Source: Bacteriovoracaceae bacterium (lineage in GTDB: Bacteria > Bdellovibrionota > Bacteriovoracia > Bacteriovoracales > Bacteriovoracaceae). From it: a stretch of DNA of 64,000 bases. How positions within the stretch are numbered: position 1 is the first letter of the stretch; each line of letters starts with the position of its first letter. The stretch covers positions 1,568,001 to 1,632,000 of the forward strand of contig JBLWTJ010000001.1 of the NCBI GenBank assembly GCA_048270185.1, written 5' to 3'. The notes under the pieces were generated by a model. It searched no databases. It was given only the letters and a program-made list of their open reading frames with translations, and had not been told where the DNA came from. Positions 33,843-64,000 of the stretch are shown in pieces. Made by a program: the position numbers and the translations under genes.

Positions 33843-34868
33843 ATGTTTAGAGGGCCCAAGGTATCAGTAATCATACCGACATATAATAGCGAGAGGACTA
33901 TTGCTGACTGTATTAATTCAGTTCTTTCACAAGATTATTCAAATATCGAGTGCATTGTTGTTAATGATGCATCAACCGATCGTACATTTGAAATTTTGAA
34001 AACTTATCCAATTAGAGTAATTAACTTAGAGCAAAATATGGGACCTAGCTTTGCTCGTAATATTGGAGTTAATGAAGCGAAAGGTAATTTCATAGCCTTT
34101 ATTGATGCTGACTGTATTGCACCTATCGATTGGGTAACAAATTTTATCAATAATTACGAAGAAGAAAATATTTGTGGAATCACTGGGCCATATATCGACA
34201 GTGCAGATGATAATGCTCTATCGGCCACAGTTGACGCATTTATTAAACACGCTCAAGAAGAGCATTCAGAGTTTATTAATAACTGTATAACATCAAATGC
34301 TTTTATTAAAAGAGAAGACTTTCTGAAAGCCGGTGGATTTCCACTCTATCAATACCCTTGGGAAAATAAGTATCGCCATGGGAATGAAGATGGAGAATTA
34401 GCCTATATTTTGATTAAGAAATATCAGAAACCTTTTCTATGGCTAAAGGACAACGGCGTTAAGCATTACCATAGAGCAACTTATATAAAACACTTTAAGC
34501 AACAACGTTTTTTAGCAGAAGCGCTATTAGTATCTTTATTATACTTCCCTGGCTCACTAATAATGAGTTGGAGAAGTATCTTTACAATTCAACGACTTCT
34601 GATTCTTATACTTTCTCCTGCTATTTTTTATATTCTGTTACAAAGGCCTTATAGCGTCTTTCTCATATTACTATTACCATTATTCCTAATGATCTTTTAC
34701 TTTTATAAGAAAAGATATAATCAAAAGATAAAGCTCTTACCTTTATTTATCTATCCATTCCTATCTGCCTTAGCATGGATAATAGGTGGAATTGAGGGCG
34801 GTATAAAATTTCTATTATCACTACCATTTTGGCTACTTAAAGATGGAAAGGTGAAAATAAATGATTAA
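33843..34868 (+). CDS. GT2 glycosyltransferase with C-terminal membrane helices
   Basis: 'VSVIIPTYN', 'VNDASTD', 'GPSFARN', 'FIDADC', 'ED' catalytic motif, hydrophobic tail. Confidence 0.9.
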   Translation: MFRGPKVSVIIPTYNSERTIADCINSVLSQDYSNIECIVVNDASTDRTFEILKTYPIRVINLEQNMGPSFARNIGVNEAKGNFIAFIDADCIAPIDWVTNFINNYEEENICGITGPYIDSADDNALSATVDAFIKHAQEEHSEFINNCITSNAFIKREDFLKAGGFPLYQYPWENKYRHGNEDGELAYILIKKYQKPFLWLKDNGVKHYHRATYIKHFKQQRFLAEALLVSLLYFPGSLIMSWRSIFTIQRLLILILSPAIFYILLQRPYSVFLILLLPLFLMIFYFYKKRYNQKIKLLPLFIYPFLSALAWIIGGIEGGIKFLLSLPFWLLKDGKVKIND

Positions 34869-35958
34869 GTTACTAAAGAACTTTCTCTCATTTAATAAAA
34901 CCCCTAAAGCTCCTCCTTACTTAATACATTTTGTCGAGCAGCGATGTAATGCGGTCTGCCCACATTGCTTTGTTTATTCAGATGAATATGAAGAAATAAA
35001 TTCTGGGGAAGTTCTTTCTATTAATGAAATCAGAAAAGTTTGTTCTACATTAAAGGGACATCTCTATAGTGTCATTCTAACAGGAGGTGAGCCTTTTTTA
35101 AGAAATGACTTTGAAGATATTTGTCACGCCTATCTCGATGAAGCAGATGTCAATATTTTAATAATTTGTACAAATGGATGGTTTACAGACAAAACTTTAA
35201 ATCTCGTTGAAAAGCTCTCAACACTCTACCCTAATAAATCATTTGATGTATCGATTTCTTTAGATGAGCTCGAAGATAAACACGACGAGTATAGAGGCAC
35301 AAAAGGTGGATTTCAGAGGGCATTAAAAACATATATGGGCATGATGGCCTTGAAGAAAAAGAATGTCTCTGTCCATATTAACTTAACTTCCAATCAAAAA
35401 AACAACGACAACTTAAGTAATATTTATCATTCACTTAAGTATGACTATGCGATCGAAAGTGTGAGCGTTAGCCCGGCCGCAGGCTTCGCCAAGGATAAAA
35501 AATCGTTAGAAATTGATCGCTCAAAGTATATGAACTTTATGAACTCTATTAAGTGGAATACGCTTAAAGAGAATAAAAGACATTTCGCTGGTGATATCCT
35601 TTCAGCAAAAGATCGTTATTTGAAATACACGTTAACACCGAAAATTTGGTCAAAAGGCTATCAAACTCCTTGTTATGCGGGAAGACTTGCAGGAGTTATC
35701 CACGCCGACGGAAATGTCTATCCATGTGAGCGACTCATGGCCCCAATCGGTAACCTAAAAGATTTCGATTTATCATTTCTAAATCTATGGAAAAGCCTTA
35801 GTGCTAAGAAGACACGTAACTGGATTTGGAAAAACAAATGTTCATGTGATCACGAATGCTTTATGGGGATCAATATACTATTCAATCCAGTACAACTGAC
35901 AAAGAGTTTTAAAGAGTATTTTATAATAAAGATACAAAGAATTAAAAGAATTCTCTAA
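34861..35958 (+). CDS. Radical SAM protein with SPASM/twitch domain
   Basis: 'CNAVCPHC', 'TGGEPFLR', 'CYAG....IHADGNVYPCE...CSCDHEC'. Confidence 0.9.
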   Translation: MIKLLKNFLSFNKTPKAPPYLIHFVEQRCNAVCPHCFVYSDEYEEINSGEVLSINEIRKVCSTLKGHLYSVILTGGEPFLRNDFEDICHAYLDEADVNILIICTNGWFTDKTLNLVEKLSTLYPNKSFDVSISLDELEDKHDEYRGTKGGFQRALKTYMGMMALKKKNVSVHINLTSNQKNNDNLSNIYHSLKYDYAIESVSVSPAAGFAKDKKSLEIDRSKYMNFMNSIKWNTLKENKRHFAGDILSAKDRYLKYTLTPKIWSKGYQTPCYAGRLAGVIHADGNVYPCERLMAPIGNLKDFDLSFLNLWKSLSAKKTRNWIWKNKCSCDHECFMGINILFNPVQLTKSFKEYFIIKIQRIKRIL

Positions 35959-35961
35959 ATA

Positions 35962-37506
35962 CTATTTCCCATGCCAAACAACGGAATAAAGATCATGTCG
36001 ACGATCCTTTAAGTTCTTTACTGCCCCATTTTGACGGGCCTCAAGCAGTAAATCGACTCTTAGATCAGCAATGGCCACCATTTCAACATTTGGGGTTGTA
36101 TCTGCAGCTATTCCATCTAAAGCAAATGGAAAGTCACAAGGTGTTAGGATACAACTTTGTGCATATTGAATGTCGATATTATTAACACGAGGTAAGTTTC
36201 CAACATTTCCGGCCATTGCAACATAGAGCTGATTTTCAATGGCTCGAGCCTGACAACAATACTTCACACGACAATAAGCTTGTCGATTATCAGTCAAGAA
36301 TGGAACAAAGAGAATATTAACACCTTGATTTGCCAAGTGTCTTGTTAGCTCTGGAAATTCACTATCATAGCAAATCAAGACCCCAATAGGACCGCAATCT
36401 GTATCGATAACTTTAACTTCTTCACCACCTTCAATATTCCACCAGTATTTCTCATCTGGAGTTGGATGAATTTTGGCCTGTTCATGGATTTGTCCATCTC
36501 TTAAGCAAATATAACTAATATTTCTAACCTTATCTTCAACTTTAGTCGGATGAGAGCCTCCGATGATATTTACATTATACTTAACAGCTAAGCGTTGAAA
36601 TAATGCTTTCACCTGCTCTGTATAGGCTGTCATATGCTCAATTGCTACATTAGCTTCTACTTCTTCATTTTTAATTGAAAGTAGTTGCATTGTGAAAAGC
36701 TCAGGAAAAAGAACAAAATCGGCACGATAATCTGCTGTCACATCAACATAGTACTCAACTAGGTTTTCGAATTCTTCAAAGCTTTTAATTCCACGCTGTT
36801 GATACTGAACACAAACGACACGGATTGAGTTTTGTTTAAGTGGTTTATTCTTTTTTGATTGAGTTGCTTGATACTCTGGATTTCTCCATATTAAGTGAAC
36901 ACCATAACCGAGTGATTCTTTATCGGTTGGGAGGTAGTCCTTGAGAGGGCCCAGAACTTCAAATCCATTTCTAATTTGAAATTCAAGAGTTCTGTCCCTA
37001 ATCTTTTTCTCTTTAACTTGCTCAATATAGTCTTCAATTCCTTCAACTTGTTTAACTTTTTTATGAAAACTCGGGACACGGCCGACAAAGATAATTCCTT
37101 TAAGGCGCTCAAATTTAACAAGCCTTTTACGTGCATTATACAGTCTTTGTCCAATACGATGACCTCGAATATCAGGGTCGACACAAGTTTCATAACCATA
37201 GAGATATTCTCCATCTTCATCATGAGTTGAACCATAACCACCACCAGTAATACTGGCCCAAGTATGCGGCTTTAAAACATCTTTTTCTTTTAGTAGAACA
37301 CTTGCAGAATATCCTACAACCTTACCGTTTAAAGTAACAACAAAGTTGCCTTCAGGGTAATTTGTAATTTGGCCTCTAATCATTCCTTTCGTATAAGAGT
37401 CAGAAAAGCCAGAATATGACTTTTCAACTAGCTCAATTATCGCTTCAATATCTTTTGTACTAGAGAGCCTGACTTCCAGTTTCACTTGCTCTGTTTTCTT
37501 TACCAC
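35962..37506 (-). CDS. Bifunctional GNAT acetyltransferase / carbon-nitrogen hydrolase
   Basis: GNAT 'VDPDIRGHRIGQRLY'; nitrilase triad 'FPELF', 'QAKIH', 'ICYDSEFPE'; 'ARAIENQ'. Confidence 0.9.
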   Translation of the reverse strand: MVKKTEQVKLEVRLSSTKDIEAIIELVEKSYSGFSDSYTKGMIRGQITNYPEGNFVVTLNGKVVGYSASVLLKEKDVLKPHTWASITGGGYGSTHDEDGEYLYGYETCVDPDIRGHRIGQRLYNARKRLVKFERLKGIIFVGRVPSFHKKVKQVEGIEDYIEQVKEKKIRDRTLEFQIRNGFEVLGPLKDYLPTDKESLGYGVHLIWRNPEYQATQSKKNKPLKQNSIRVVCVQYQQRGIKSFEEFENLVEYYVDVTADYRADFVLFPELFTMQLLSIKNEEVEANVAIEHMTAYTEQVKALFQRLAVKYNVNIIGGSHPTKVEDKVRNISYICLRDGQIHEQAKIHPTPDEKYWWNIEGGEEVKVIDTDCGPIGVLICYDSEFPELTRHLANQGVNILFVPFLTDNRQAYCRVKYCCQARAIENQLYVAMAGNVGNLPRVNNIDIQYAQSCILTPCDFPFALDGIAADTTPNVEMVAIADLRVDLLLEARQNGAVKNLKDRRHDLYSVVWHGK

Positions 37507-37507
37507 T

Positions 37508-38734
37508 TTACTTACCTTTATATTTTTTCTTTATATGTGAATTAAAATATGGGACATCATATGTTCTTTTGAATGGAAACTTAGCTGTTTCTATTACTTT
37601 ATAAATATCATTCGTTAGTTTCCTAGGCATTCCAAGGTTATCTCGAAAGCCATTTTTTAGAACTTTCATACGCCGCTCTAGCATGGGGATTTCCTCGGCC
37701 CAAACATCTTCATTCCACTTCTCAAGCATAATTTTCATGATAGGCCACAGAAATTTAGTAAATCGTCCTAGCATGACATTATAGCTTATTTTGTAATGAC
37801 AGCTCTCATCACCATTTGGCTCAATTTTCACATGGGCCCAAAATGGAATTCCAAAGAGAGTTTTAGAGAAATTATAGAATGAATAATCTCCGTCTCTTAC
37901 AACCATTTCAAGTGAAGAGAGTTTAATAAATGAAAATATTGGTAATCTAAACTTAGTTGAAAAAACAAGAAAACGATCATCTTCATAGAGGACTTCTTCA
38001 CTTACGTAGCCTTTATGCATATAGTTTGTATGCTCTATGTCCATATGATTCCAGAAAACAATATGTGCAGGGTATTCTAGTTCACGAGTAAGAAACATCT
38101 TTTTAATAACTCTTTCTTTTCTCTCGCCTTTCATCGAACTCGTTAAGTCATCAATAGGTGATCTAACTGTGCGATTAACTTGAAGTTTCACTTCTTTAAG
38201 GCCTAGATTATTTACTTTTTTTCTTTCATCCACACTTTTTGGAATACCAACATTATCTCTAAAACCACTTTTTAAGACTTTAATCCTACGTTCGATTATT
38301 GGTAAGTCTTCTTCTAAAAATTTTCTATTCCAAATATTTAAAATAAATGAAAGAGGATATTTTAAAAACTTAAAAGCACCATTTAGAATAAAATTATATG
38401 ATATTTTGTAATTTGAATGCTCACTATTATCTTCACAAGGACTAATTTCAATGTGGGCCCAGCCAATAATTCCAAAGAAAGTCTTCTTATAATCAACAAG
38501 ACTATACTCACCTGTTCTAATGATATAATTAAGCTGAGTATTTGATAAGAATGGAATATATGGAATCTTCGTTCGCGTTAATAGTGTTGTGGATCGATCA
38601 GTTTCATTTAAGATTTTCGCATTAATATAATCCGGGTGAACACAAAGCAAGTGTTCGTGATCCCAATGATTCCAAAATAATACTGATGCAGGATAAGGTA
38701 CTCTTCTTGTAAAAGTTTTCTTAAAATGTGTCAT
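37508..38734 (-). CDS. Tandem duplication of a Rieske-oxygenase-type catalytic (SRPBCC/Bet v1 fold) domain
   Basis: Two repeats: 'FWNHWDHEHLLCVH...EEDLPIIERRIKVLKSGFRDNVG' and 'FWNHMDIEHTNYMH...AEEIPMLERRMKVLKNGFRDNLG'. Confidence 0.7.
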   Translation of the reverse strand: MTHFKKTFTRRVPYPASVLFWNHWDHEHLLCVHPDYINAKILNETDRSTTLLTRTKIPYIPFLSNTQLNYIIRTGEYSLVDYKKTFFGIIGWAHIEISPCEDNSEHSNYKISYNFILNGAFKFLKYPLSFILNIWNRKFLEEDLPIIERRIKVLKSGFRDNVGIPKSVDERKKVNNLGLKEVKLQVNRTVRSPIDDLTSSMKGERKERVIKKMFLTRELEYPAHIVFWNHMDIEHTNYMHKGYVSEEVLYEDDRFLVFSTKFRLPIFSFIKLSSLEMVVRDGDYSFYNFSKTLFGIPFWAHVKIEPNGDESCHYKISYNVMLGRFTKFLWPIMKIMLEKWNEDVWAEEIPMLERRMKVLKNGFRDNLGMPRKLTNDIYKVIETAKFPFKRTYDVPYFNSHIKKKYKGK

Positions 38735-39048
38735 GATATTAATATAATAACATCATCGTTTTCAATTTTATTAGAATAATTAAAAAGTTTTACTTTATAG
38801 TTACGATTTACACATTCCAATGACTTAGGACAGTATTTCAGTCCATGCCACTTACATTCAATTGTCTGAGTTTTTTTGTCAAACTTAAAATCGCCACCTT
38901 GATGTGGACAAATACTTGAGAAAGTATGAACGTTATTATCTTTGTCGAGATATGCACTAACTTCATCACGAAGTTCATCAACCCACTTAGTAATGTATTG
39001 AGTCTTTTTCAATTCTGAATAGCTACAAAATCTAATCTTTACGTCCAT
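38731..39048 (-). CDS. Stand-alone Rieske [2Fe-2S] protein
   Basis: 'CPHQG...CKWHG'; overlaps next gene by ATGA. Confidence 0.9.
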   Translation of the reverse strand: MDVKIRFCSYSELKKTQYITKWVDELRDEVSAYLDKDNNVHTFSSICPHQGGDFKFDKKTQTIECKWHGLKYCPKSLECVNRNYKVKLFNYSNKIENDDVIILIS

Positions 39049-39191
39049 ACTGAAACTCTTTTAAATATCGCCTTTATTTCTTGGCGAAAATAAAGTGCAA
39101 AAAATCAAATTGCAGTCCTAATAGATGGAATTCCCCCATCTTACAATTATATTTATTAATTTCCTAAGTTACTATAAAATCATAGAACAAT

Positions 39192-40736
39192 ATGAAAAAT
39201 ATAGTACTTATACGCCCACCAACAGTTACCAAGAAAAGTATGATAAGTTCTGTTAATGGAACTCCTCCTCTTGCACTAGCGTACCTAAAAGGTACGATAG
39301 AAAAAGCTGGGCACAAAGTCGATATTATTGACGCTTTTGGAGAAAGCATCAATGCCATCAGAAAACTAAAAGATACCGATCTAATTATTAACGGCCTAGG
39401 AACACAGGAGATCATTGAAAGGATTCCTGATTCAATTGACGTCATCGGCATATCCTCTATGTTCTCACATGAATGGATTTATGTAAAAAAACTTATTAGT
39501 GAGTTACGAAATAAATTTCCACAGAAATTAATCATACTTGGTGGGGAACATGTAAATGCTGACTATGATTACATAGTTAAGTGTTCAGATGATATTGATA
39601 TATTTGTCTTTGGTGAAGGTGAAGAAACCATAAGTGAAATTCTAAATAAATTTGGTTCTGATTATAGTGATATTAGTGGTATCGCCTACAAAACAAAAAA
39701 TGGTTACAAAAAAAATCCAATCCGCAACCGAATAAAGAAAATTGATGAAATTGCTTGGCCAAGTTGGGAGGGGATTCCCTTAGAGAACTATTTCAAAGCG
39801 GGGCTTGGGTACACACAATATAATGCAAGAACAATTCCTATGCTTGCAACAAGAGGCTGCCCATACCAATGTACCTTTTGTTCATCAGTCAGTATGTGGA
39901 CAACTCTTTGGAATTACCGAGACCCAGAAGATGTCATAAAAGAAATTAAATACTATATCGAACGTTATCAAATCAATAGCGTCGACTTTTATGATCTAAC
40001 TTTCATTATTAACAGAAAATGGATCTTAGAATTTTGTCGAATTTTAAAAAGAGAGAAGCTTGATATAAATTGGACATTCCCTTCCGGGACAAGATCTGAA
40101 GTTTTAGACCGTGAAGTATTAGAAGCACTTAAGAGTGTCGGAATTTCTAAGATTGGCTACGCACCAGAGTCAGGATCACCAACAACAATTAAAAGAATCA
40201 AAAAGAGAGTCAATCTCGACAAAATGGTTGCTTCAATGAAGATATGCATTGAACTTGGAATTCACTGTGAAGCAACATTAATTTTCGGCTTCCCTGAACA
40301 AACAATCAAAGAAGTAATCGAAAATTACCTATTCTTAATTAGGCTAGCATGGATTGGTGTTAATGATTTAACATGTTTTCCATTTGTCCCCTATCCAGGA
40401 AGTGAACTTCACAATGATCTGACAGCAAAGAGAGAGATTATTAAGAAAGAAGGAGATTACGAACTCTTTCTTAGTAACACTTTAAATAATAATATTGCAT
40501 ACGGAAAATCTTGGTCTAGGCATATACCAAGTTTCACAATTCCATTTCTAACACTTGGCGGGATTCTCTTTTTCAATATTTTAAAATATCTCTTTAGGCC
40601 GACAAGAGTTTTTAAAAGTATCAAGAATGTTATCAAGGGAGAGCCTGTTGGCATTATCGAGCCAATTATATGGGGGCTCTATATCAATATTTTCAAGCGT
40701 AAGAAGTACTCAAAATTTGTCAAGGAGCTCGATTGA
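39192..40736 (+). CDS. B12-binding-domain radical SAM protein
   Basis: 'PPLALAYL', 'LGGEH', 'GEGEETI', 'TRGCPYQCTFC', 'APESGS', 'PYPGS'. Confidence 0.92.
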   Translation: MKNIVLIRPPTVTKKSMISSVNGTPPLALAYLKGTIEKAGHKVDIIDAFGESINAIRKLKDTDLIINGLGTQEIIERIPDSIDVIGISSMFSHEWIYVKKLISELRNKFPQKLIILGGEHVNADYDYIVKCSDDIDIFVFGEGEETISEILNKFGSDYSDISGIAYKTKNGYKKNPIRNRIKKIDEIAWPSWEGIPLENYFKAGLGYTQYNARTIPMLATRGCPYQCTFCSSVSMWTTLWNYRDPEDVIKEIKYYIERYQINSVDFYDLTFIINRKWILEFCRILKREKLDINWTFPSGTRSEVLDREVLEALKSVGISKIGYAPESGSPTTIKRIKKRVNLDKMVASMKICIELGIHCEATLIFGFPEQTIKEVIENYLFLIRLAWIGVNDLTCFPFVPYPGSELHNDLTAKREIIKKEGDYELFLSNTLNNNIAYGKSWSRHIPSFTIPFLTLGGILFFNILKYLFRPTRVFKSIKNVIKGEPVGIIEPIIWGLYINIFKRKKYSKFVKELD

Positions 40737-41101
40737 TCTCCCCAAAAAGCTATGACGACTTTTCCAAAAGGAAGCAATTTCTTCTATTAGGCTTCATCAC
40801 TATAAATATTTATTTTGTACTTAAATACTTTAATATATCAACCTATCCAGAAGTAATCGCATCTTTAATTTTTGCATTGGCAATTAATTATGGAAAATTA
40901 AGAGAGTGTATCTGTAAGGGATGGCTAACGATCATTTATATTATTAATTTTCTAATTTCAGAAATCGTATTATTTTTAACTTATTTTTTAGTAGTGACAC
41001 CAACTGGAATCATTAGAAAGTTACTCTCGAATGAAGAGAATATTGAAAGTACATGGATCGTACGAAAAGAAAGAAATACTAACTTCAATAAACAATACTG
41101 A
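40733..41101 (+). CDS. SxtJ-like membrane protein
   Basis: 'LFLTYFLVVTPTGIIRKL...STWI.R....NFNKQY'; position before DUF5989 and carbamoyltransferase. Confidence 0.75.
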   Translation: MISPKSYDDFSKRKQFLLLGFITINIYFVLKYFNISTYPEVIASLIFALAINYGKLRECICKGWLTIIYIINFLISEIVLFLTYFLVVTPTGIIRKLLSNEENIESTWIVRKERNTNFNKQY

Positions 41102-41114
41102 AAGGTTACATATA

Positions 41115-41264
41115 ATGAGTACAATTAAAGAGTTTTTTAAATTTCTAATCGAGCGTAAGAAATACTGGCTTGTACCATTCTATATTGTAATCTTTGTATT
41201 AGCGATTTTAATAGTACTACTTCCAGGATCTCAAGTAGCACCATTCATCTACAGTATCTTTTAA
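41115..41264 (+). CDS. DUF5989 (SxtK-like) small membrane protein
   Basis: 'EFFKFLIERKKYWLVP...GSQVAPFIYSIF'; ATG at 41115. Confidence 0.85.
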   Translation: MSTIKEFFKFLIERKKYWLVPFYIVIFVLAILIVLLPGSQVAPFIYSIF

Positions 41265-46128: not shown

Positions 46129-46163
46129 ACCAATAACCGTTGTTCAATATTATAATATCATCA

Positions 46164-53359: not shown

Positions 53360-53454
53360 ATTGTTAGCATCTTATTTGAAATCATGTTATATATAACTAT
53401 ACATTAAGTTTAGTTTATTTCTTACTATTTTGCTAACTTTTGACAGAGATGTGT

Positions 53455-56476: not shown

Positions 56477-57656
56477 AATAATTTTTAAGTTTAAATGCGA
56501 CAGACATCATACGAGCTTCACTAATTTTATTATGATTAGGAATAAAAAGAGCTTCTCTTTCAATTAACTTTGCATTTGGCAGATCATTATAAGAAATTAA
56601 ATAGCCGGCCCTAGTATCAATACCAAGTCTAATTAGATCAAATCGAGTTTTCTTAATATCATCGACTCTGATGACATAATTAAGATGGCTCGAAACTTTA
56701 ACTCTTTGATGTTTAATACCTAATTCATCAAAGACTTGATCTAAGATTTCACTATTTCGCTTTTGCCTTTTCATATTTTGAGAAAAGGATTTGAGATTCT
56801 TTAATGCTACTAAAGCAAAGAAAGGTGGTAATTTATATTCTATTGCTTTGATATCGACAGGTGTTGGCTTCTCAGTGACGATAGCATCAATGACTTGTGT
56901 CTTATTAAGAACGAGAAATCGCCATATGTAGACTGTTATGAGATTAAAAATAAAAGGTGATGTCGCAATATTAGAAACGATTCCTTTAATAAGAACTTTT
57001 AGATTATCTCCAAAAGATCTTTCTTTAAAATAAACAATCCTCTCTCTTGCAAAAGTATTTAATTCGCTATCATTTGTCAGTAGTACTCCACCACAAAAGC
57101 CAGAGATTGGCTTAGTAAGACTTAAGCTTGAAAAACTTGCCCAAATATTAGCGGAGTCTTCAGTAATAATACCAAGAGAGTGAGCAGCATCTTCAATAAT
57201 TGGGATAAATCTCTCATCTAGAAATGAAATGATATCCGCGTAGTCACAAAGACTCCCATAACTATTTGTCATGAGAACACAGAGAGTTTTATCAGAGATA
57301 AGAGTTTTAATTTCTTTATTTGAAATATTGAAAGTATCTTTTTCGATATCACTAAAGATAGGAACAAGTCCTAAGGCCTTGATCACTTCGGCCATCGCAA
57401 AGAAATTATAACTAGAAAGAATAACTTCATTCTTATCAGGATATTTATTCTTTAAGAATTCAAGGGCGAGAAAGAAACTTGCTCTAGCTGATCCAGTCGT
57501 TAGGACAAATTCTTTCTTTACAAGACTTGCAACAGCGCTTTCAAAATCCCTAATGAATTCAACTTTCTTTGAATTAAATATAAACTTTGTAATAACTCCC
57601 ATCCAATCAAGTGGTGAAAGATAGAGATTTACGCAATCACTTGCGACACGAGACAT
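56454..57656 (-). CDS. DegT/DnrJ/EryC1/StrS-family PLP-dependent aminotransferase
   Basis: 'IIEDAAHSLG', 'SLSLTKPISGFCGG' with the PLP lysine. Confidence 0.85.
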   Translation of the reverse strand: MSRVASDCVNLYLSPLDWMGVITKFIFNSKKVEFIRDFESAVASLVKKEFVLTTGSARASFFLALEFLKNKYPDKNEVILSSYNFFAMAEVIKALGLVPIFSDIEKDTFNISNKEIKTLISDKTLCVLMTNSYGSLCDYADIISFLDERFIPIIEDAAHSLGIITEDSANIWASFSSLSLTKPISGFCGGVLLTNDSELNTFARERIVYFKERSFGDNLKVLIKGIVSNIATSPFIFNLITVYIWRFLVLNKTQVIDAIVTEKPTPVDIKAIEYKLPPFFALVALKNLKSFSQNMKRQKRNSEILDQVFDELGIKHQRVKVSSHLNYVIRVDDIKKTRFDLIRLGIDTRAGYLISYNDLPNAKLIEREALFIPNHNKISEARMMSVAFKLKNYFKEGLKP

Positions 57657-57658: not shown

Positions 57659-59179
57659 TTAGACCTTTTTTAGATAACTTTTAAATTGCTTAATTTTAAC
57701 AGAAATAAATTGATCCATCACATCTTCTTCGCTGGCCTTAAAAATATTTCGAATACGGCGATATAGCCTGATTGGCCTAAGAGTATATTGAAGTGCAAAA
57801 AACGAGAAGACCATCGTCATTTGAACAATTATTAAATGCCAATTCTTATAACCTTCATTATAGCTCTTTGAAGAGGCAGAGGCCCTAAGCAGTGTCGATA
57901 AGAAATACTGACGATCAAAAGTTATAAGACCTTTATTAACTAATTCTTTATAGAGTGGACTTCCAGGATATGGAGTAAAAATCATAACTCCAACACCATG
58001 AGCTCCCCAAAAAGCTGTCTTTAAGACAAAGAGATAAGACATAAGCATATCCCTCTTACGCTCACCAGGCAGACCTATAATAATATTATTATTAACAATA
58101 ATTCCGGCCTTAAGTGACATCTTCATAGCATCAATAAGCTTATTAAGCTTTAAGCGCTTTTGGATCTTCTTTAAGATATAGTCTGATCCTGACTCAGGAG
58201 CAAAAGCAAAGTTACGACAACCGCTTTCATAGAGAAGCTGAGTTATTTCTTCATCAAAAGCTTCAATTCGAGAGCCTTGAGGTAATTGCCAAGAGACATT
58301 GATATTTCGTTTTTTAATAAGTGCAAAAAATTCTCTGATCCACTTCTTATTGATAAATGATGTTAGATCATTAAAGTCGATATTTTGAATTCCATATTCA
58401 TTTATATAACTTTCAATTTCATTTACGACGTTCTCAGGAGAGCGAGTATTATACTTGGTTGTCCACATATTAACTGATGAACAAAATTGGCAACGATAAG
58501 GGCATCCACGACTCATAATCATTGGAATTGAGCGGCCACGATTAACTCCCCCAGAAAAACGATTATCCCAATACGCTTTAAGATTAAACTCTTTCCAAGA
58601 CGGAAGAGGTAATTCATCAATCGACTTTATTCTTGCTCTCTTTTCAGTGTGAACAATATTTTCACCTAGAACAAAGGCAAGTCCTGCGATATGAGAGAAA
58701 CCAGAATCATTTCTTATGGCCATAACTAATTCATGAAATGTTTCTTCCCCTTCACCAATAACGATATAATCAACTTCAGGTAAGTTTCTTAGAATATAAT
58801 CAGAGAAAGAAGAAGCATTCTCTCCTCCTAGGACAATCTTTACCTCAGGTCTTACACTTTTAATTTCACGAACTAGTCTTTCAATGATGAGATATTCATG
58901 AAGATACATATTTGTAATTCCAACGATATCACAATCATGTGGAAGCATCTGTGCAATCTCTTCAACACTTAGGCCGTGTTCTAATAATTCGAAGCCAGGC
59001 ATATCAACGGCCTTAAATGATTTCTTCGATTCTCCAATAGCATCAATGACACTAACGCTGATATTTTTCTTCTCTAAGTATGAAGCAATATAAGCAAGCC
59101 CCAAAGGAGGGACGGGCCCATAATAACTAAGGGAATTTTTCGCAATCCAATTGGGAGGATTTATTAGAACAACTTCCAT
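57659..59179 (-). CDS. B12-binding-domain radical SAM protein
   Basis: 'PPLGLAYIA', 'LGGEN', 'GEGEETF', 'SRGCPYRCQFC', 'APESGS', 'PYPGS'. Confidence 0.92.
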   Translation of the reverse strand: MEVVLINPPNWIAKNSLSYYGPVPPLGLAYIASYLEKKNISVSVIDAIGESKKSFKAVDMPGFELLEHGLSVEEIAQMLPHDCDIVGITNMYLHEYLIIERLVREIKSVRPEVKIVLGGENASSFSDYILRNLPEVDYIVIGEGEETFHELVMAIRNDSGFSHIAGLAFVLGENIVHTEKRARIKSIDELPLPSWKEFNLKAYWDNRFSGGVNRGRSIPMIMSRGCPYRCQFCSSVNMWTTKYNTRSPENVVNEIESYINEYGIQNIDFNDLTSFINKKWIREFFALIKKRNINVSWQLPQGSRIEAFDEEITQLLYESGCRNFAFAPESGSDYILKKIQKRLKLNKLIDAMKMSLKAGIIVNNNIIIGLPGERKRDMLMSYLFVLKTAFWGAHGVGVMIFTPYPGSPLYKELVNKGLITFDRQYFLSTLLRASASSKSYNEGYKNWHLIIVQMTMVFSFFALQYTLRPIRLYRRIRNIFKASEEDVMDQFISVKIKQFKSYLKKV

Positions 59180-59180
59180 T

Positions 59181-60596
59181 TTACCTCTGCTTTACCAGAT
59201 AGTATTTGAAGAAGTTATTAATGAGAAGAGTTAGATTCTTTACAGAGAAAGTATCAAGCACAAGTTTAAAAAATGGCCAGCGAAATAGATTGGCAAAAGA
59301 AGCATAACGAATAAGCTTACGTTGTTCTTCAACTGAAAATTCTTGATTATCAAGTAGTGCCTTTTGCTGACTATATTCGATAGTAAAATTTGATTTTGGA
59401 ATAAGGCCTTTCTCTAGCGCTTCATCATATAGCTGAGTACCAGGAAATGGAGAAGCTCCATAGAATTGAAAAGCACTTAATTTAAGTGACTTTGCAAATT
59501 CAATCGATTCTTTCGCAGAATGAATTGTTTCATTTGGAAGCCCTAAAATAAAGTGGCCAACCGTTTTGAGTCCGACTTTTTGAGCAGTTGCTACCGCTTT
59601 TTGCATTTGATCTTTATTGATACCTTTCTTTGATGCTTTAAGAATTTCTTCATTGGAAGACTCGAGACCAAAGGCAATCATCCAACATCCAGCATCCTTC
59701 ATGGCACGAGCGATCTCTTCATCAATAGTATCAACACGAGAATTACAGACCCAATTAATATTGAGCTCTTGAATCTTTAAGCATAGTTTTAAAACAAAGC
59801 GTTTATCGATCGTGAATGTATCGGCCCAGAATAGAAAATCTCTAACACCAAAGACCTCAACATTTCGCTTAATTTCATTATAAATTGAATCGACACTTCT
59901 TTTTCTAAGACTACTTCCATAGAAGCTTGGAGCAGTACAAAAAGTACAAGACCAAGGACAGCCACGAAGTGGTGCGATCATTAGATACGGTCTCCACTTT
60001 AATGGCAGTAAGTATTCTTTGAACTTGAAAAGTTCCCACGCTGGCTCACCAAGCTCATCAAGGTTACTGATAAACTTGGCCGGTTCATTTTTTTTAATCT
60101 CTCCATTATAGCGGAATGTGATTCCAAGCGATTTGAAATTGTATTCTTTACGTTGAATTTCCTGTGCTAATTTTAGAACAATATCTTCCGGCTCATTTCT
60201 GATGACGACATCAAGTTCAGGGCACTTTAATAGGGCCTCTTCAGATAGATTTGAAACGTGAGTCCCAATACAGGCAATATACACATTTGGTAGGCACTTT
60301 TTAATAAGGGCCACAACTTCTAAGTCAGAATTTATGCTTGGAGACCCAGTCGAGATAACAACGAGTTCCGGTTTATTATCAATCAGGTACTTTTGAAAGT
60401 TTTCACGAGAATGATGTCCAATAGAACCATCATACCCCAGGGCCTCAAAATGGTGCTTTTTAAGGTAGCCACCTATTGACGCGAGACTATAAGGAGGAAA
60501 AACCATGGACCATATACTGGCCTCTTGAGTACACCTTCCTTCACGAGTGTAACCTGTATTTTTAAATGAAGGTGGATTCAATAGAAGTATTTTCAC
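59181..60596 (-). CDS. B12-binding-type radical SAM protein (HpnJ-like architecture)
   Basis: GTG start; 'LLNPP...REGRC', 'NEPE', 'RGCPWSCTFC', 'AGCWMIAFGLES', 'PFPGT'. Confidence 0.9.
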   Translation of the reverse strand: MKILLLNPPSFKNTGYTREGRCTQEASIWSMVFPPYSLASIGGYLKKHHFEALGYDGSIGHHSRENFQKYLIDNKPELVVISTGSPSINSDLEVVALIKKCLPNVYIACIGTHVSNLSEEALLKCPELDVVIRNEPEDIVLKLAQEIQRKEYNFKSLGITFRYNGEIKKNEPAKFISNLDELGEPAWELFKFKEYLLPLKWRPYLMIAPLRGCPWSCTFCTAPSFYGSSLRKRSVDSIYNEIKRNVEVFGVRDFLFWADTFTIDKRFVLKLCLKIQELNINWVCNSRVDTIDEEIARAMKDAGCWMIAFGLESSNEEILKASKKGINKDQMQKAVATAQKVGLKTVGHFILGLPNETIHSAKESIEFAKSLKLSAFQFYGASPFPGTQLYDEALEKGLIPKSNFTIEYSQQKALLDNQEFSVEEQRKLIRYASFANLFRWPFFKLVLDTFSVKNLTLLINNFFKYYLVKQR

Positions 60597-60644
60597 TATT
60601 TAGCCTTGAACTTTAAACAGATATACAATTATACTATACTCTAC

Positions 60645-61394
60645 ATGAGAAATAAGTCAAAAATCCCTTATAACCGCAGTGTTGCCCTTGCAATACCCTG
60701 TCTTAACGAAGAAAAAACTATTTCTGATGTCATAAAAAACAGTCGCTCACAAATTGAAGATATTAATGTCTATGTTTTCGACAATGGTAGTAGTGATAAT
60801 AGTATAAAAATTAGTGAAAATTCTGGTGCTAAAGTAGTCAGAGTTTCAAAACTTGGTAAAGGTCATGTCGTTCATGAGATTCTTTCCACGCTAAGTGAAG
60901 ATTTTATTATTATCGTTGATGGTGACAATACCTACGATGTGACAAATATCAACGCTCATATCAAAGAAATGATTGAAGAAGAAATCGATATGATTATTGG
61001 TCACCGCCAATATGCTAGTTGTTATTCTCATTCTAAAACAAGACGATTTGGAAATTATCTCATCAGTAGTCTCTTTAATCTGTTATTCGGCCAAGATTAT
61101 AGCGATATCTTGAGTGGCTATCGCATTGTTAACCAAAGAGCTGCAAAACTTACTCTACCAAAGACAAGTGGATTCGAAGTAGAAACACTATGGACGTATA
61201 ACTCATCTCAAAGTGATATCAAAATATGCGAAAGAGTAATTAACTATATTACCAGACCAGAAGGTAGTAACTCTAAACTTTCTGTATTAAAAGATGGTTG
61301 TCGTATCTCTAAGCTGATGATGAAGCTTTTCCTTTTTGGTAACGAAACACAATCCAAAGAGAAAGCAATAGAAGTAAGCCAAAGAGAAAACTGA
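60645..61394 (+). CDS. GT2 polyprenyl-phosphate glycosyltransferase (DPM synthase/GtrB-like)
   Basis: 'IPCLNEEKTI', 'DNGSSD', 'GKG', 'VDGDNTY', 'DILSGYR', 'GFEVET', 'RPEGSNSKL...DG'. Confidence 0.88.
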   Translation: MRNKSKIPYNRSVALAIPCLNEEKTISDVIKNSRSQIEDINVYVFDNGSSDNSIKISENSGAKVVRVSKLGKGHVVHEILSTLSEDFIIIVDGDNTYDVTNINAHIKEMIEEEIDMIIGHRQYASCYSHSKTRRFGNYLISSLFNLLFGQDYSDILSGYRIVNQRAAKLTLPKTSGFEVETLWTYNSSQSDIKICERVINYITRPEGSNSKLSVLKDGCRISKLMMKLFLFGNETQSKEKAIEVSQREN

Positions 61395-63108
61395 TCTTTA
61401 GACCTAAATAAAAACCATCCGGAACAAAATGTAGAAAAATTGATTTTTGTCCTTTTTCTGCATGCACACCTATTAATCCATTGTAATCAAATACTCGATT
61501 ATCTTCGAAGCGCCAACCATCATGATAGTTTTGATTAACTATAATATCTGTATTTTCCTTAAGTTCAGGAAAGAATAAATTAATGCCATTTGGAACAAAT
61601 TGAAAAGAAATATCATTCTCAATGGTATTATCTAAGTAATAAACTTCACCACGATAATCTTTACTATCACGAGGACTTACAAATGTTTTAACTGTTGCGA
61701 CTTCTTCAGATTCATCATTATAAGTTGTCGATATTCCAGCAAGATAGCAGGGGTAAAAACCAATCTGCGTAGTAGTCATATACTCAATTCTAATTGGACA
61801 CTTTCTGACTGTAACAAAATCACCCCTTGCAGGCATAACGCTCTTAAAAGGAAATGCAAAAGTAGTAACATAGTAACTAACACAGATAATAGGAACTACA
61901 CTTAGTCCAAGAGTAAGGTATTTAACAAGATTTTTTCTATTATATTTATAAAAAATATACTCAAAACCTGCTGCGGAGAAATAAGCAAAACCGAAAAGAA
62001 AGAAAGCTCTGAAACGCATAGGAAAACGAATACTATCGAATGGAAAGAAATTATTTAAATACGTCCAAGGCCCATGTGGCAATCTTGTCCCAAACGAAAG
62101 TAATAAGAATGTTAATGTAAAAAATAAAATAGGACGACTAAACTTATCTTTATTAAATAGTCCTATGAAAAATAATATTATTGGGACCAGTCCAACAAAC
62201 ATTCCATTCTCATCCCACCAATGATTAATACCTCTAAGGAAGTCGCCTTTACCATCTGGAAATATTTTTTTGAAATCATTTTTCGCATATCTTTCAGAAG
62301 TTTCACGGTAAAGCTTTTGTCTAGGGTAAATCATCGAGTAAACAAGACCCTGAAGGCTGAAACCTGAATAAATATCACCTATCTCTCTAGGAGCATCTTT
62401 CATATATAAGACACCTGGATATAGCTTCACAGCACCTAAACCAATCCCTAGAACAACACCTATAATAAAAGCTTTTATTTTAGGAGTATTAGATTTATTC
62501 AAGTGATATAAGAACCAAATACCGAAGCTTAATAAAACTAATGTAATTGCGTGAGCCGCCCCCATCATTACCATCGAAAAAATATAGATAGGAATTCCTA
62601 TATAAATTGTTCGTTTTGAACCTCTTAGCCAGAACCAAAATAGAAGAGGAAATGTAACGTAATAAGCAAAACTCAACATCCCTGTTCCCATGATGAGAAC
62701 AAACATACTATTAAGTACACATACACTGACAAATAGAACACATGCGAGAGGACCAAATTTAAACTCTTTGGCGCACAAATAAGCGCCTATTACGCCTGTC
62801 AGATATGTCACAACACAGAGAAATTTAAAAGCTACAATATTGGAAAGAAAATATAATATTGGAGTTAGAATATGAAAGCCAGCTACAACAGGATATCCCC
62901 AAAAATTATTTCCACCACGTGAGTAGTGAATCCAAAAAGGAAGCTTCAAATTTCTAACTGAATCGAGATAGTGACTAAGGTTCATTATTTCATTATCGAA
63001 ATCTATCAGGCCCCAATTATCAATATTAAAAAATATCGGTAATATCGTAATCAAGGCAAGTACGATACATGTGATAAAAGAATGTCTATGCGTAAATTTT
63101 GACTCCAA
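61309..63108 (-). CDS. YfhO-like polytopic membrane glycosyltransferase (GT-C)
   Basis: TTG behind GAGGA; 'LPFW..Y..GG', 'RFPMRF', C-terminal 'VNQNYHDGW...F.FVP....GL..S'. Confidence 0.72.
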   Translation of the reverse strand: MESKFTHRHSFITCIVLALITILPIFFNIDNWGLIDFDNEIMNLSHYLDSVRNLKLPFWIHYSRGGNNFWGYPVVAGFHILTPILYFLSNIVAFKFLCVVTYLTGVIGAYLCAKEFKFGPLACVLFVSVCVLNSMFVLIMGTGMLSFAYYVTFPLLFWFWLRGSKRTIYIGIPIYIFSMVMMGAAHAITLVLLSFGIWFLYHLNKSNTPKIKAFIIGVVLGIGLGAVKLYPGVLYMKDAPREIGDIYSGFSLQGLVYSMIYPRQKLYRETSERYAKNDFKKIFPDGKGDFLRGINHWWDENGMFVGLVPIILFFIGLFNKDKFSRPILFFTLTFLLLSFGTRLPHGPWTYLNNFFPFDSIRFPMRFRAFFLFGFAYFSAAGFEYIFYKYNRKNLVKYLTLGLSVVPIICVSYYVTTFAFPFKSVMPARGDFVTVRKCPIRIEYMTTTQIGFYPCYLAGISTTYNDESEEVATVKTFVSPRDSKDYRGEVYYLDNTIENDISFQFVPNGINLFFPELKENTDIIVNQNYHDGWRFEDNRVFDYNGLIGVHAEKGQKSIFLHFVPDGFYLGLKISFLFGLLLLLSLWIVFRYQKGKASSSA

Positions 63109-63116
63109 TATTTCCT

Positions 63117-64000
63117 CTAATTAATACGATAGGCACGATGAATATCATTTTCATCAATTAATTCTAAGTTTAAATTCCAGCTTCGTGGGACGAGTATTAA
63201 ATCAACTTTATATTTATCTTTTAACATCACCCATTGTTGTCTATCTCTTTGACTCCATTCCTTAAATATTTTCTTTTCAATTAAATTGATACTATTCCTA
63301 TATGGTATTTCTGGTCTTAAGAATTCAATCCCATAAAGATCAAGCATGACATCACGATAAAATGACATCATATTCGAGTTGTAGACAAGGTCATCAATTG
63401 TATCAAGATCCATAATATTTGGAAGACCAGTTATTAACTGACATTGCTCACAAGAGGGAGTGGATAATAAAAAGGTCCCCTGTTTATTAACTTTTCTATA
63501 AAACTCATCATTTTCATAATACTTCATTTGAGACACATTAAAGCTATAGGCCTTCTTAGAAGTAGTAGCGTAAAGTGTAAAAACGAAGATTGCAAATATA
63601 CTTATAATTGAAATAAATAGTTTATTCGTATAAATAGGTAGATCTTTAAAACGTGGAAGAAGAAGTGAAATGCAAAGGCCATATAAAAATATAAGTACAA
63701 TATTCTTATAAATGGCATATCGATCGAGCATATATATAAAGCTCCAATCCGCCAAAGCGGAGTCAAAAAGAAATAAGAGAAACAAAGTCAAAATAGCTTT
63801 AGACACGACACGAGTTTTTGCTATTGCAAAAGTAATAAGAACGCCAGGAGCTAGAAACAAAGTATAGTTTAATAGTCTTGTCGCCAAGGTACTCCACCAA
63901 TAGGCCGGCATAAAGTTAACTAGATATTGACCAAAGTGGCCCTGAAAAAAACCAATTAAACTCAAAGTCAGTAATGTCGTAAAAAGAAGTTTTAATTGAT
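63117..64000 (-). CDS. Membrane protein, C-terminal part (5' end beyond window)
   Basis: Frame is open to the window edge; several TM helices then a soluble tail ending 'KYKVDLILVP'. Confidence 0.65.
   Translation of the reverse strand, partial: QLKLLFTTLLTLSLIGFFQGHFGQYLVNFMPAYWWSTLATRLLNYTLFLAPGVLITFAIAKTRVVSKAILTLFLLFLFDSALADWSFIYMLDRYAIYKNIVLIFLYGLCISLLLPRFKDLPIYTNKLFISIISIFAIFVFTLYATTSKKAYSFNVSQMKYYENDEFYRKVNKQGTFLLSTPSCEQCQLITGLPNIMDLDTIDDLVYNSNMMSFYRDVMLDLYGIEFLRPEIPYRNSINLIEKKIFKEWSQRDRQQWVMLKDKYKVDLILVPRSWNLNLELIDENDIHRAYRIN

Follow-up and report, generated by a model that had tools for sequence, protein, structure and literature searches.

We describe here a gene island of about 60 kb in a Bacteriovoracaceae bacterium, a likely predator, that very probably serves to build a surface glycan, whatever the acceptor. 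We give even chances to a more specific model, in which the island builds radical-tailored sugars that pass by way of a polyprenyl carrier to GT-C transferases, with a pilin fibre as one likely acceptor. The island comprises 13 radical SAM genes (eight B12-type and five SPASM-type), five GT2 domains and five GT-C-like membrane proteins (Table 1). An initial annotation of the 64,000-nucleotide stretch analysed (the window) had proposed an assembly line for modified sugars on a lipid carrier and had noted that the cluster runs off the end; indeed, the island extends about 30 kb beyond the downstream edge. Overlooked at that stage were a block of NDP-sugar genes, the fixed hypervariable position of the island and the pilin-fibre gene, whose product is the best candidate acceptor.

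Table 1. Features of the island. Genes are named by their first coordinate; extended positions, used for genes past the window, are contig C1 positions minus 1,568,000.
Feature	Position	Strand	Basis
GT2, C-terminal membrane helices	33843..34868	+	Pfam PF00535 E 5e-36; TM scan
Radical SAM/SPASM, paralogue of 49802 (30%)	34861..35958	+	Pfam, pairwise comparison
GNAT-nitrilase fusion	35962..37506	-	Pfam
Putative tandem oxygenase catalytic domains	37508..38734	-	two NxxDxxH motifs
Stand-alone Rieske [2Fe-2S] protein	38731..39048	-	Pfam PF00355
B12-domain radical SAM; clade with 54932 (51%) and 57659 (35%)	39192..40736	+	Pfam, NCBIfam, pairwise comparison
Small membrane ORFs: 122 aa (40733-41101), 49 aa (41115-41264)	40733..41264	+	
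Carbamoyltransferase, NodU/CmcH type	41272..43065	+	Pfam PF02543 + PF16861; NodU model below cut-off
GT-C-like membrane protein, paralogue of 47173 (27%), first ATG at 42953	43058..44815	+	
Radical SAM, B12-type length, degenerate N-terminal domain	44755..46128	-	Pfam, NCBIfam
Radical SAM with SPASM/twitch domain	46140..47207	+	Pfam, NCBIfam
GT-C-fold membrane glycosyltransferase (predicted)	47173..48987	-	AlphaFold, structure search
240-aa membrane protein, flippase candidate	49094..49816	+	TM scan; no Pfam family
Radical SAM/SPASM	49802..50890	-	Pfam
GT2, C-terminal membrane helices	50877..51905	-	Pfam; TM scan
B12-domain radical SAM	51887..53359	-	Pfam, NCBIfam
B12-domain radical SAM	53440..54939	+	Pfam, NCBIfam
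B12-domain radical SAM, widespread clade	54932..56476	+	Pfam
Divergent DegT-family PLP enzyme	56454..57656	-	Pfam
B12-domain radical SAM	57659..59179	-	Pfam, NCBIfam
B12-domain radical SAM, closest model HpnJ (250 bits, cut-off 578)	59181..60596	-	NCBIfam
GT2, polyprenyl-phosphate sugar synthase type, AglJ-like below cut-off	60606..61394	+	Pfam, NCBIfam
GT-C-like membrane protein, YfhO/PTPS_related look-alikes	61309..63108	-	ESM Atlas features 0.97-0.99
576-aa membrane protein, weakly GT-C-like; C-terminal half in window, gene start at extended 64847	63117..64000	-	
B12 radical SAM	extended 64847-66352	-	
Transketolase pair, three DegT proteins, HddA-like kinase, WbuC cupin	extended 66362-72949		
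GT2-radical SAM-SPASM fusion	extended 72946-74583	-	
Radical SAM/SPASM	extended 74692-75723	+	
Oxidoreductase, PgfS/ArnC-like GT2 (76713), epimerase, HddC-like transferase, Gmd-like dehydratase, NDP-sugar C-methyltransferase	extended 75707-81502		
Pilin-adjacent GT-C-like protein, 551 aa	extended 81513-83168	-	
Prepilin-fibre, 689 aa	extended 83172-85241	-	
SGNH protein, TIGR04323/TIGR04324 pair, second transketolase pair, epimerase; then aroB-aroA	extended 85442-93474		

All ten radical SAM ORFs annotated in the window have an intact CxxxCxxC motif and a Pfam Radical_SAM match, and the three assigned to the SPASM/twitch type (34861, 46140 and 49802) have Pfam SPASM matches. The count of seven B12-domain enzymes holds for six, which pass the Pfam B12-binding cut-off; over the whole island, seven of the eight B12-type proteins combine this domain with CxxxCxxC. 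The exception, 44755, has no B12-binding match, and the GGxH and GEGE-like stretches found in its paralogues are missing, so its cobalamin domain is degenerate or unproven. The cobalamin itself may be scavenged; neither CobS nor a cobalamin riboswitch was found in the 96% complete genome, which encodes one BtuB-like receptor scoring below cut-off. Precedent for sugar C-methylation and ring contraction comes from the cobalamin-dependent radical SAM enzymes HpnJ, MoeK5, GenK, OxsB and SD1168, as covered in the consulted sections of a review (PMC9204698) whose main text does not contain the word "glycan". The island enzymes share their B12-binding plus radical SAM architecture. However, no island protein reaches a family cut-off, and hopanoid, phosphonate or antibiotic scaffold genes are absent from the island; NCBIfam models of radical SAM maturases were all below cut-off for the window's proteins. 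Since the best NCBIfam models for the B12-type enzymes are HpnJ, BchE and Sden_1168, one could suppose that they modify a lipid skeleton or head group (a hopanoid cyclitol ether, a phosphonolipid or a ladderane-like lipid). We find this extremely improbable: the models score far below cut-off (HpnJ 250 of 578 bits, Sden_1168 203 of 575), and squalene-hopene cyclase (PF13243) and PEP mutase (TIGR02320) have no match in the 96% complete genome, so that the locus corresponds neither to the hopanoid branch (HpnI/K/J) nor to the phosphonate P-methyltransferase cluster (Sden_1168, PhpK).

The density of these enzymes is not a matter of chance, as, of the 36 CxxxCxxC ORFs of at least 200 aa in the genome, 13 fall in one 41-kb stretch of the island, none of 73 other 40-kb windows used as controls contains more than two, and seven of the genome's ten B12-binding matches lie inside the island. 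The island ORFs are full length. The annotated lack of an NRPS, PKS or terpene core and of a precursor peptide extends to the adjoining sequence: no core synthase was found among the ORFs scanned by Pfam up to aroC, the NRPS Condensation domain has no match in the 96% complete genome, and no RiPP precursor peptide was found, the longest gap between ORFs of at least 100 aa being 201 bp and a 171-bp gap being occupied by a 49-aa membrane ORF.

Pfam recognised the three GT2 enzymes annotated in the window, and together with those downstream they would load sugars onto polyprenyl phosphate; 60606 scores 151 of 325 bits against the AglJ model, and 76713, past the window, scores 190 of 500 against PgfS and 116 of 529 against ArnC, all below cut-off. 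The five GT-C-like proteins, judged by predicted fold, may then transfer the sugars outside the inner membrane. The proposed GT-C fold is best seen in 47173, whose AlphaFold model (pLDDT 90.7) retrieved exclusively GT-C-type folds in the top 20 rows of a VIA structure search (Z 8.0-14.2, next row 6.0), including ALG12 (Z 14.2, rmsd 4.2, 334 aligned), AftB (14.2) and ArnT (13.8). Foldseek gave no row at E ≤0.001 (best ArnT, 2.6e-3), the family profile had no meaningful PDB sequence match, and D43, D45 and N47 are conserved after helix 1 in the family alignment. We regard the predicted fold of 47173 as confident and the protein as a putative glycosyltransferase. Homology to 47173 suggests the same type for 43058, and the case is weaker for 81513 (related to the 47173 family; own structure model pLDDT 52), 61309 (no Pfam match) and 63117 (hhalign 78% against the 47173 family).

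Carbamoyltransferases, DegT enzymes and B12 radical SAMs are also known from pathways to diffusible natural products, according to the sections consulted of PMC9204698, and the best PDB match of the main B12 clade is AprD4, albeit a weak one (E 1e-18). Nevertheless, it seems very unlikely that the cluster makes an aminoglycoside-like, carbamoylated amino-sugar or aminocyclitol for release: the presence of polyprenyl-phosphate-type GT2s and of five GT-C-like proteins argues for transfer outside the cytoplasm, Pfam detected no exporter or regulator among the scanned island ORFs, and the locus behaves as a surface antigen locus.

The statement that NDP-sugar genes are missing is true of the window, but they lie directly downstream of it. 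Such enzyme families make amino, deoxy and branched NDP-sugars, and by their family matches the kinase, nucleotidyltransferase, 4,6-dehydratase, epimerases, aminotransferases, transketolase pairs and C-methyltransferase would supply NDP-sugars here. The eight B12-type and five SPASM-type radical SAMs, the carbamoyltransferase and the Rieske pair could tailor these in the cytoplasm through C-methylation, oxidation or epimerisation, and perhaps an HpnJ-like ring contraction; fusion of a radical SAM to a GT2 (72946) ties the radical step to glycosyl transfer. The annotated O-carbamoyltransferase has both Pfam domains, and the DegT aminotransferase has a family match (residues 33-204) and the lysine motif. 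The split Rieske oxygenase is supported by Pfam for the Rieske ORF; 37508 has no Pfam match and two NxxDxxH motifs, which we take to be the motif typical of Rieske oxygenase catalytic domains. As for the "SxtJ" and "DUF5989" partners, the 122-aa and 49-aa membrane ORFs, both ORFs exist and the names lack support, the former having no match in Pfam or NCBIfam and the latter none in NCBIfam. Past the window, TIGR04323, TIGR04324 and WbuC members score over cut-off and recall the "sporadic carbohydrate cluster" LIC12192 pair with its WbuC cupin, which accounts only for a small mobile part of the island; to our knowledge the product of the pair is uncharacterised.

The island occupies a constant position, with dapF on one side and aroB/aroA on the other, whose content is hypervariable. 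This interval is readable in eight relatives, seven of which have a pilin-fibre gene and 7-11 CxxxCxxC proteins there, and the eighth (G003) has neither and represents a natural empty site. The island shares no gene with five same-genus genomes, where the pilin fibre is accompanied by another radical SAM cassette in which no GT-C or GT2 is seen, versus 19 shared with G021, a member of another genus. By this comparison the content tracks fibre-tip type and not genus, and it is swapped between strains and genera. The GNAT-nitrilase 35962, 85-87% identical in the five same-genus genomes, is a conserved gene caught in the island and probably stands outside the pathway. The 19 orthologues come from both island halves, with three adjacencies surviving among them; strand changes occur at 17 of 38 gene junctions, and different subsets are shared with different relatives. 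Together with three close B12 paralogues and the embedded conserved gene, this scrambling would suit a patchwork of small independent tailoring cassettes at a hot spot better than one pathway. Full-length ORFs and the joint recurrence of 19 genes of both halves in the G021 island make that account improbable for the island as a whole; for part of the genes it is compatible with our model of sugar tailoring, polyprenyl carrier and GT-C transfer. Of the original assembly line, sugar tailoring with lipid-carrier chemistry is supported, with the radical enzymes acting on either lipid-linked or nucleotide-linked sugars, and its single-line character is weakened by the scrambled order and by subsets that travel separately. 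The proposal also survives the three checks set for it at the outset: the flanking DNA encodes sugar enzymes but no core synthase, 47173 has a predicted GT-C fold, and the island genes occur together elsewhere.

The candidate acceptor is a type IV prepilin (N_methyl match) fused to a tail-fibre-like body, encoded 3 bp upstream of the GT-C-like gene 81513 on the same strand. With an N_methyl motif and an added C-terminal module it has the marks of a modular type IV pilin, and it is not the major pilin; the genome encodes a prepilin peptidase and, near it on contig C4, a 191-aa PilA-like ORF. Modular pilins of N_methyl plus S74 architecture have been catalogued (PMC8179133, sections consulted); like them, our protein joins a class III signal to a tail-fibre-like body, and its orthologues carry a terminal S74 module that has an SDxxxK motif, but the island's copy lacks S74. 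Bdellovibrio MAT fibres, as described in the consulted part of PMC10769870, start with an ordinary signal peptide followed by a conserved 130-aa beta-rich domain, whereas the 689-aa protein starts with a class III signal and a pilin-like head. The words "pilin" and "glycosyl" are absent from the main text of the MAT paper, and the consulted parts of both papers draw no link between such proteins and a glycan island.

The compared genomes are kin, so the following counts overstate: an 81513-family gene lies directly behind the pilin fibre on the same strand in 9 of 14 family-bearing genomes (four of the nine not used in building the profile) and not in the other five; the fibre is present in 13 of these 14 genomes versus 50 of 151 overall; and at least three radical SAM (CxxxCxxC) motifs occur within 20 kb in 15 of 20 further pilin-fibre loci versus 0 of 73 control windows, four of the 20 having no radical SAM nearby. 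The pilin/81513-family pairs stay adjacent at 22-68% identity while the remaining gene order is scrambled. A near-identical strain has a different pilin head (codons 57-309) next to an unchanged GT-C gene, which means that the head is not a fixed partner of the GT-C. We discarded as proof a Fisher test and a correlation of 81513-family with tip identity (rho 0.66, 28 dependent pairs), both confounded by linkage and kinship, and also an argument from 18 N-x-S/T sites in 689 aa, as the composition is Asn- and Thr-rich and the conserved tip motif NPSNS is not a conserved sequon. The Ser+Thr share of the fibre part, 0.15-0.24 in eight GT-C-linked fibres versus 0.13-0.15 in five S74-type ones, is a weak difference, beta-helices being Thr-rich anyway.

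In P. aeruginosa, the tfpW gene follows pilA (pilA-tfpW-tfpX), much as 81513 directly follows a prepilin gene with a class III signal. By gene order, the 551-aa GT-C may act like TfpW on its own pilin, and the remaining four would lengthen or decorate the glycan or work on different acceptors. In the parts consulted of the relevant reports, group IV pilin glycosylation pairs the membrane glycosyltransferase TfpW with a type IV pilin and a lipid-linked sugar, D-Araf (10.1101/2020.04.19.049825), and pilin glycosylation protects against phage (10.1101/150227). The likeness is one of gene arrangement, pilin glycosylation here being a prediction; in contrast to the TfpW system, the candidate acceptor is a modular pilin-fibre, GT-C-like proteins number five, and 13 radical SAM enzymes stand in place of D-Araf synthesis. 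Several points count against the pilin-fibre reading. Some are given above, namely the same-genus genomes whose fibre comes with another cassette, the four loci that have no radical SAM nearby, the five genomes in which the adjacency is absent, the replaced head and the low pLDDT of the 81513 model; in addition, five GT-Cs exceed the need of one protein acceptor, and linked genes may co-vary without working together, as the embedded GNAT-nitrilase seems to illustrate.

The sugars could instead decorate a glycolipid or, in the manner of ArnT or Gtr systems, LPS (side groups on lipid A-core or O-antigen), and the pilin fibre would then be just another variable antigen that shares the recombination hot spot. 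For 47173, ArnT heads the Foldseek rows and ties for the top in VIA, the island encodes HddA/HddC-like heptose enzymes, S74-type pilin loci have no GT-C, and a satellite DegT/radical SAM/membrane set elsewhere adjoins a GT9 heptosyltransferase gene, which points to LPS. In other lineages the B12 clade has a GT2 nearby in 41 of 79 loci, along with GT-C-type proteins, MBOAT and Wzx-type flippases. A prepilin motif lies by just one of the 79, and the module is therefore not restricted to pilins. We still rate LPS or a glycolipid as a somewhat unlikely destination, for it leaves the pilin-81513 adjacency unexplained, and Wzx, Wzy and the initiating phosphoglycosyl transferase (WecA) are encoded outside the island (C4:139-163 kb and C1:1035-1051 kb). 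These three have no Pfam match among the island ORFs, which do not make up a Wzx/Wzy O-antigen or capsule locus. A predicted GT-C fold transferase, serotype-like variation and GT2s that resemble polyprenyl-phosphate sugar synthases below cut-off recall three-component systems (GtrB/GtrA/GT-C, GT136; Arn pathway; PMC11127046, sections consulted); unlike these, the 96% complete genome has no match to the GtrA flippase family, and the island has multiple GT-Cs and putative radical-tailored donors. An LPG_synthase_TM protein is encoded on contig C4.

Returning to the pilin fibre, we tentatively propose that a pilus-tip fibre adhesin travels in Bacteriovoracaceae-type predators as a serotype-like cassette, together with a dedicated GT-C oligosaccharyltransferase and a radical SAM sugar factory. 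The coat of the fibre would consist of sugars that no glycoprotein is known to carry, bearing C-methyl groups, branches, carbamoyl groups or contracted rings. If true, cobalamin radical chemistry would here underlie a pathway of protein glycosylation, and an acceptor could be named for the widespread, unexplained islands pairing B12 radical SAM with GT2 and GT-C genes, which recur in many uncultured phyla and on whose product we found no paper. The likely benefit would be a cell surface that keeps changing, as a defence from phages or for contact with prey, and a variable pilus-tip-fibre glycan would matter for how predatory bacteria recognise prey and escape phages. New sugar chemistry is likely to be found among the thirteen divergent radical SAM enzymes. 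Because the island offers a fixed address, natural alternative alleles, an empty site (G003) and a concrete candidate acceptor, and because the family includes cultured predators, the question is testable. The literature searched, with subscription journals outside its coverage, describes no cluster of this type; supplementary gene lists (PMC3526173; PMC8179133 Dataset S1; PMC10769870 Tables 3-4) may name these genes. No RNA dataset was listed for the sequence words queried, and three DNA runs contain half or more of them.

A shared-word homologue search recovered the query alone, both for 47173 and for the 81513 alignment, and a HMMER library search with 47173 yielded 172 representatives. The 47173 alignment is highly divergent, too much so for a locus scan. 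Among its longer homologues, 19 of 22 tested are fused to TPR arrays, which protein-modifying TMTC-type GT-Cs also carry, and one is fused to a GT2.

The island between dapF and aroB/aroA is a real, uncharacterised locus that reads as a variant of GT-C glycosylation islands and stands out by the size of its radical SAM set. Each of the ten radical SAM ORFs that the initial annotation had claimed in the window was found, with CxxxCxxC present, and its GT2s, carbamoyltransferase, DegT protein and Rieske ORF were borne out. Six of the seven radical SAMs assigned to the B12 type score above the Pfam B12-binding cut-off and 44755 (genes are named by their start) falls below it, while none of the seven reaches an NCBIfam cut-off (best HpnJ 250/578 bits, BchE 220/481, Sden_1168 203/575). 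The density of CxxxCxxC proteins is far above background: 13 of the genome's 36 such ORFs are packed into 41 kb of the island, and none of the 73 other 40-kb windows holds at least three. Outside the island, window 26206-28015 encodes a 283-aa radical SAM and then another protein of 283 aa, which has no Pfam match, and CxxxCxxC proteins are grouped on two short contigs (C6:2144-6244, three; C23:500-3118, two). The genome (G000, with the window at C1:1568001-1632000) is 3.35 Mb, 96% complete and ~36% GC; two of the best named-genome matches to the main radical SAM clade (39192/54932/57659) carry Bacteriovoracaceae and Bacteriovorax titles, and the host is probably a Bacteriovoracaceae-type predator.

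As the initial annotation had noted, the cluster runs off the window; it continues to aroB-aroA (93474). The apparent lack of NDP-sugar genes did not survive this extension, such genes lying just past the edge. The extended island did not yield a core synthase, Wzx, Wzy or clear precursor peptide either. Wzx occurs with a WecA-type gene at one locus elsewhere in the genome and Wzy with a phosphoglycosyl transferase at another; the island is a third glycan locus. Within it (33843-64000, on to C1:1653241), 9/9 convergent gene pairs overlap or lie <30 bp apart, compared with 121/224 in the remaining contig sequence upstream, and its GC is 0.344 vs 0.369 for the contig. A satellite set (L155:8467-13479; C1:351467-356479) encodes a GT9 heptosyltransferase, a DegT-like protein, a radical SAM that has the B12-type length but no canonical CxxxCxxC, and a membrane protein of 501 aa with a weak match to the 81513 family.

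Island genes past the window edge (positions are contig position minus 1,568,000)
Feature	Position	Placement
Eighth B12 enzyme, radical SAM	64847	
Split transketolase		after 64847
Three further DegT proteins		
HddA-like kinase		
WbuC cupin		
GT2-radical SAM-SPASM fusion	72946	
One more SPASM enzyme		after 72946
Oxidoreductase		
PgfS/ArnC-like GT2		
Epimerase		after PgfS/ArnC-like GT2
HddC-like nucleotidyltransferase		
Gmd-like dehydratase		
NDP-sugar C-methyltransferase		
551-aa membrane protein 81513	81513-83168	
689-aa prepilin 83172	83172-85241	
SGNH protein		after 83172
TIGR04323/TIGR04324 'sporadic carbohydrate cluster' pair		
Second transketolase pair + epimerase		last before aroB-aroA (93474)

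The GT-C fold proposed for the membrane proteins is confident for 47173, by predicted structure. Its AlphaFold model (pLDDT 90.7, built with 103 sequences), compared with 48,161 chains, returned GT-C-type folds in all top 20 rows, led by ALG12 (Z 14.2, rmsd 4.2, 334 aligned), AftB (14.2), ArnT (13.8), ALG3 (13.7) and AglB (13.5), the next unrelated row having Z 6.0; Foldseek again placed the GT-C class first, with weak E-values. D43, D45 and N47, which follow helix 1, are conserved in the family alignment. Domains were scanned in 51 of 150 listed representatives of its homologues: PMT_2 was matched at E <=0.001 in 8/29 of similar length and above the cut-off in one, and longer homologues carry TPR arrays (19/22) or GT2 (1/22). 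The arrays are long and frequent (P0031, P0036, P0044 and 16 more proteins); the GT2 domain occurs once (P0063). 43058 is a paralogue of 47173, and 81513 aligns to the 47173 family with a probability of 96% over 131 columns; its model is poor (pLDDT 52), its top 18 rows being nonetheless GT-C-type (Z 8.4-11.2). The look-alikes of 61309 are YfhO/PTPS_related, and 63117 is the weakest GT-C-like case (hhalign 78% to the 47173 family).

The fibre protein 83172 starts with a class III signal (Pfam N_methyl), has conserved cysteines in its head and a Cys-bearing tip, and resembles phage baseplate hub proteins (PHROG 430) over residues 341-545; orthologues in the genus carry an S74 chaperone at their C-terminal end and match tail fibres. 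The genome also encodes a prepilin peptidase. Two further large prepilins are encoded at L153:9264-10694 (476 aa, thrombospondin type 1 domains) and L158:9345-10514 (389 aa, no Pfam match at E 1e-6). The head profile matches in 50/151 family genomes; in 20 of the 49 others, picked from the best rows with contig room, the 20 kb on each side hold at least three CxxxCxxC proteins in 15/20 (14/20 with a stricter motif), one in 1/20 and none in 4/20.

The 81513 family occurs in 14/151 genomes, 13 of which have the pilin fibre, and in 9/14 its gene lies directly behind the fibre gene on the same strand. Five of these nine contributed to the 81513 profile (G000, G021, G095, G049, G006) and four lie outside it (G125, G116, G001 and G005, where a contig end cuts the fibre gene). 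In G015 and G145 the gene stays in the region but 22-27 kb off; it is distant in G118 and on a separate contig in G048, G045 having a weak match without pilin. Five other genomes have, next to the pilin gene and on its strand, a gene for a membrane protein with TPR matches, which in three of them are below cut-off. Island content appears to follow tip type, with a median of 11.5 shared genes within groups vs 0 between, a figure inflated by kinship and linkage. In sequencing run X1, a contig identical to G000 over the 81513 gene and the C-terminal half of the fibre has 778 unlike bases in place of 754 (codons 57-309, the head; L004:4317-5072), and run X2 contains both head forms; thus strains can be near-identical, with one unchanged GT-C gene, and still differ in the head.

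What the analysis directly establishes is the set of gene families, their order and variability, and a single confident GT-C fold. By the established chemistry of these families, island enzymes would make NDP-sugars, which the radical enzymes may tailor in the cytoplasm; B12 radical SAM enzymes are described as carrying out methylation or rearrangement, with sugar-ring contraction proposed for HpnJ and the substrate of SD1168 not known (PMC9204698). The GT2s would load the sugars onto lipid, a flippase would export them, and the GT-Cs would build and attach the glycan; polyprenyl-phosphate loading by GT2 and transfer by GT-C are established chemistry (PMC11127046). By analogy, 81513 could act like TfpW, which polymerises a lipid-linked sugar and transfers it to pilin (10.1101/2020.04.19.049825), and pilin glycans protect P. 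aeruginosa against phage (10.1101/150227). Cobalamin would be scavenged rather than made: CobS was not found in the 96% complete genome, where a BtuB-like receptor scores below cut-off and B12-binding proteins outside the island number three. A surface-glycan role for the island is very probable.

The initial expectation that these genes co-occur elsewhere was confirmed, the B12 radical SAM clade lying near GT2 and GT-C-type proteins in other lineages. The 39192/54932/57659 clade was confirmed in 601 stretches, the best 79 loci coming from Omnitrophota, Elusimicrobiota, Planctomycetota, Alphaproteobacteria, Myxococcales and others; near the clade in these 79, many of them short, are GT2s (41/79), proteins with at least seven helices (57/79), epimerases (22/79) and a prepilin motif (1/79). 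Among the 80 of 89 nearby membrane proteins scanned, 19 match PMT_2, PMT, YfhO, PTPS_related or DUF6044, which we take to be GT-C-type by clan, 42 have no match and 19 match other families, including 6 MBOAT and 4 Wzx-type. From these neighbourhoods, 'B12 radical SAM + GT2 + GT-C' is a module for tailoring glycans in general and is not specific to pilins. The main rival, in which LPS or a glycolipid is decorated, is possible but rather unlikely; we put at about even chances that the pilin fibre is an acceptor.

The island would work like a three-component GT-C system, and its gene layout is like that of a pilin glycosylation island. With a flippase looked for and not found, a pilin other than the major pilin and no glycan seen, it is at most a putative member of either class. 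It does not qualify as a hopanoid, phosphonate, RiPP, NRPS or Wzx/Wzy cluster. S74-bearing modular pilins have been catalogued (PMC8179133), pilins and glycosylation are not mentioned in the main text of the MAT fibre paper (PMC10769870), and the text of the B. marinus genome paper reports islands with 'pili and glycosyl transferases' and does not contain 'radical SAM' (PMC3526173). A radical SAM glycan island of this kind is not described in the literature that we searched, although supplements of these papers may list the genes; what is new here is the large radical SAM set in a GT-C glycosylation island together with a testable candidate acceptor.

dapF and aroB/aroA were detected in 11/11 relatives searched, on a single contig in 8. 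The interval between them spans 63 kb in G000, 64 kb in G021, 66 kb in G015 and 26-34 kb in six same-genus genomes, and contains a prepilin homologue and 7-11 CxxxCxxC proteins in 7/8 relatives, that of G003 having neither prepilin nor cassette. Five same-genus genomes, whose aroB-aroA is 76-81% identical, share no island orthologues with G000; in the cassette that they carry instead, eight CxxxCxxC proteins are accompanied by a DegT protein, deacetylases, a UDP-sugar dehydrogenase and ORFs of phage-like type, and no GT2 or GT-C was seen. G021, of another genus, has 19 orthologues in common with the G000 island, the order being kept for only three adjacent pairs; the same-genus G001 has a related island in different gene order, and the 54932 protein is matched in 1/40 relatives at E 1e-40. 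We infer that the slot behaves as a surface antigen locus under swapping. The alternative cassette (L014:3686-20000 and L015:1-6700 in G008; also in G002, G004, G009, G011 and G041) adjoins a pilin-S74 fibre gene and includes a Cys/His-rich 183-aa ORF, PIG-L and polysaccharide deacetylases and ORFs matching phage families of unknown function. aroB-aroA is fused in G000 (L002:11474-13669) and five same-genus genomes, whereas four more genomes of the genus and two from other genera have aroB and aroA as separate genes.
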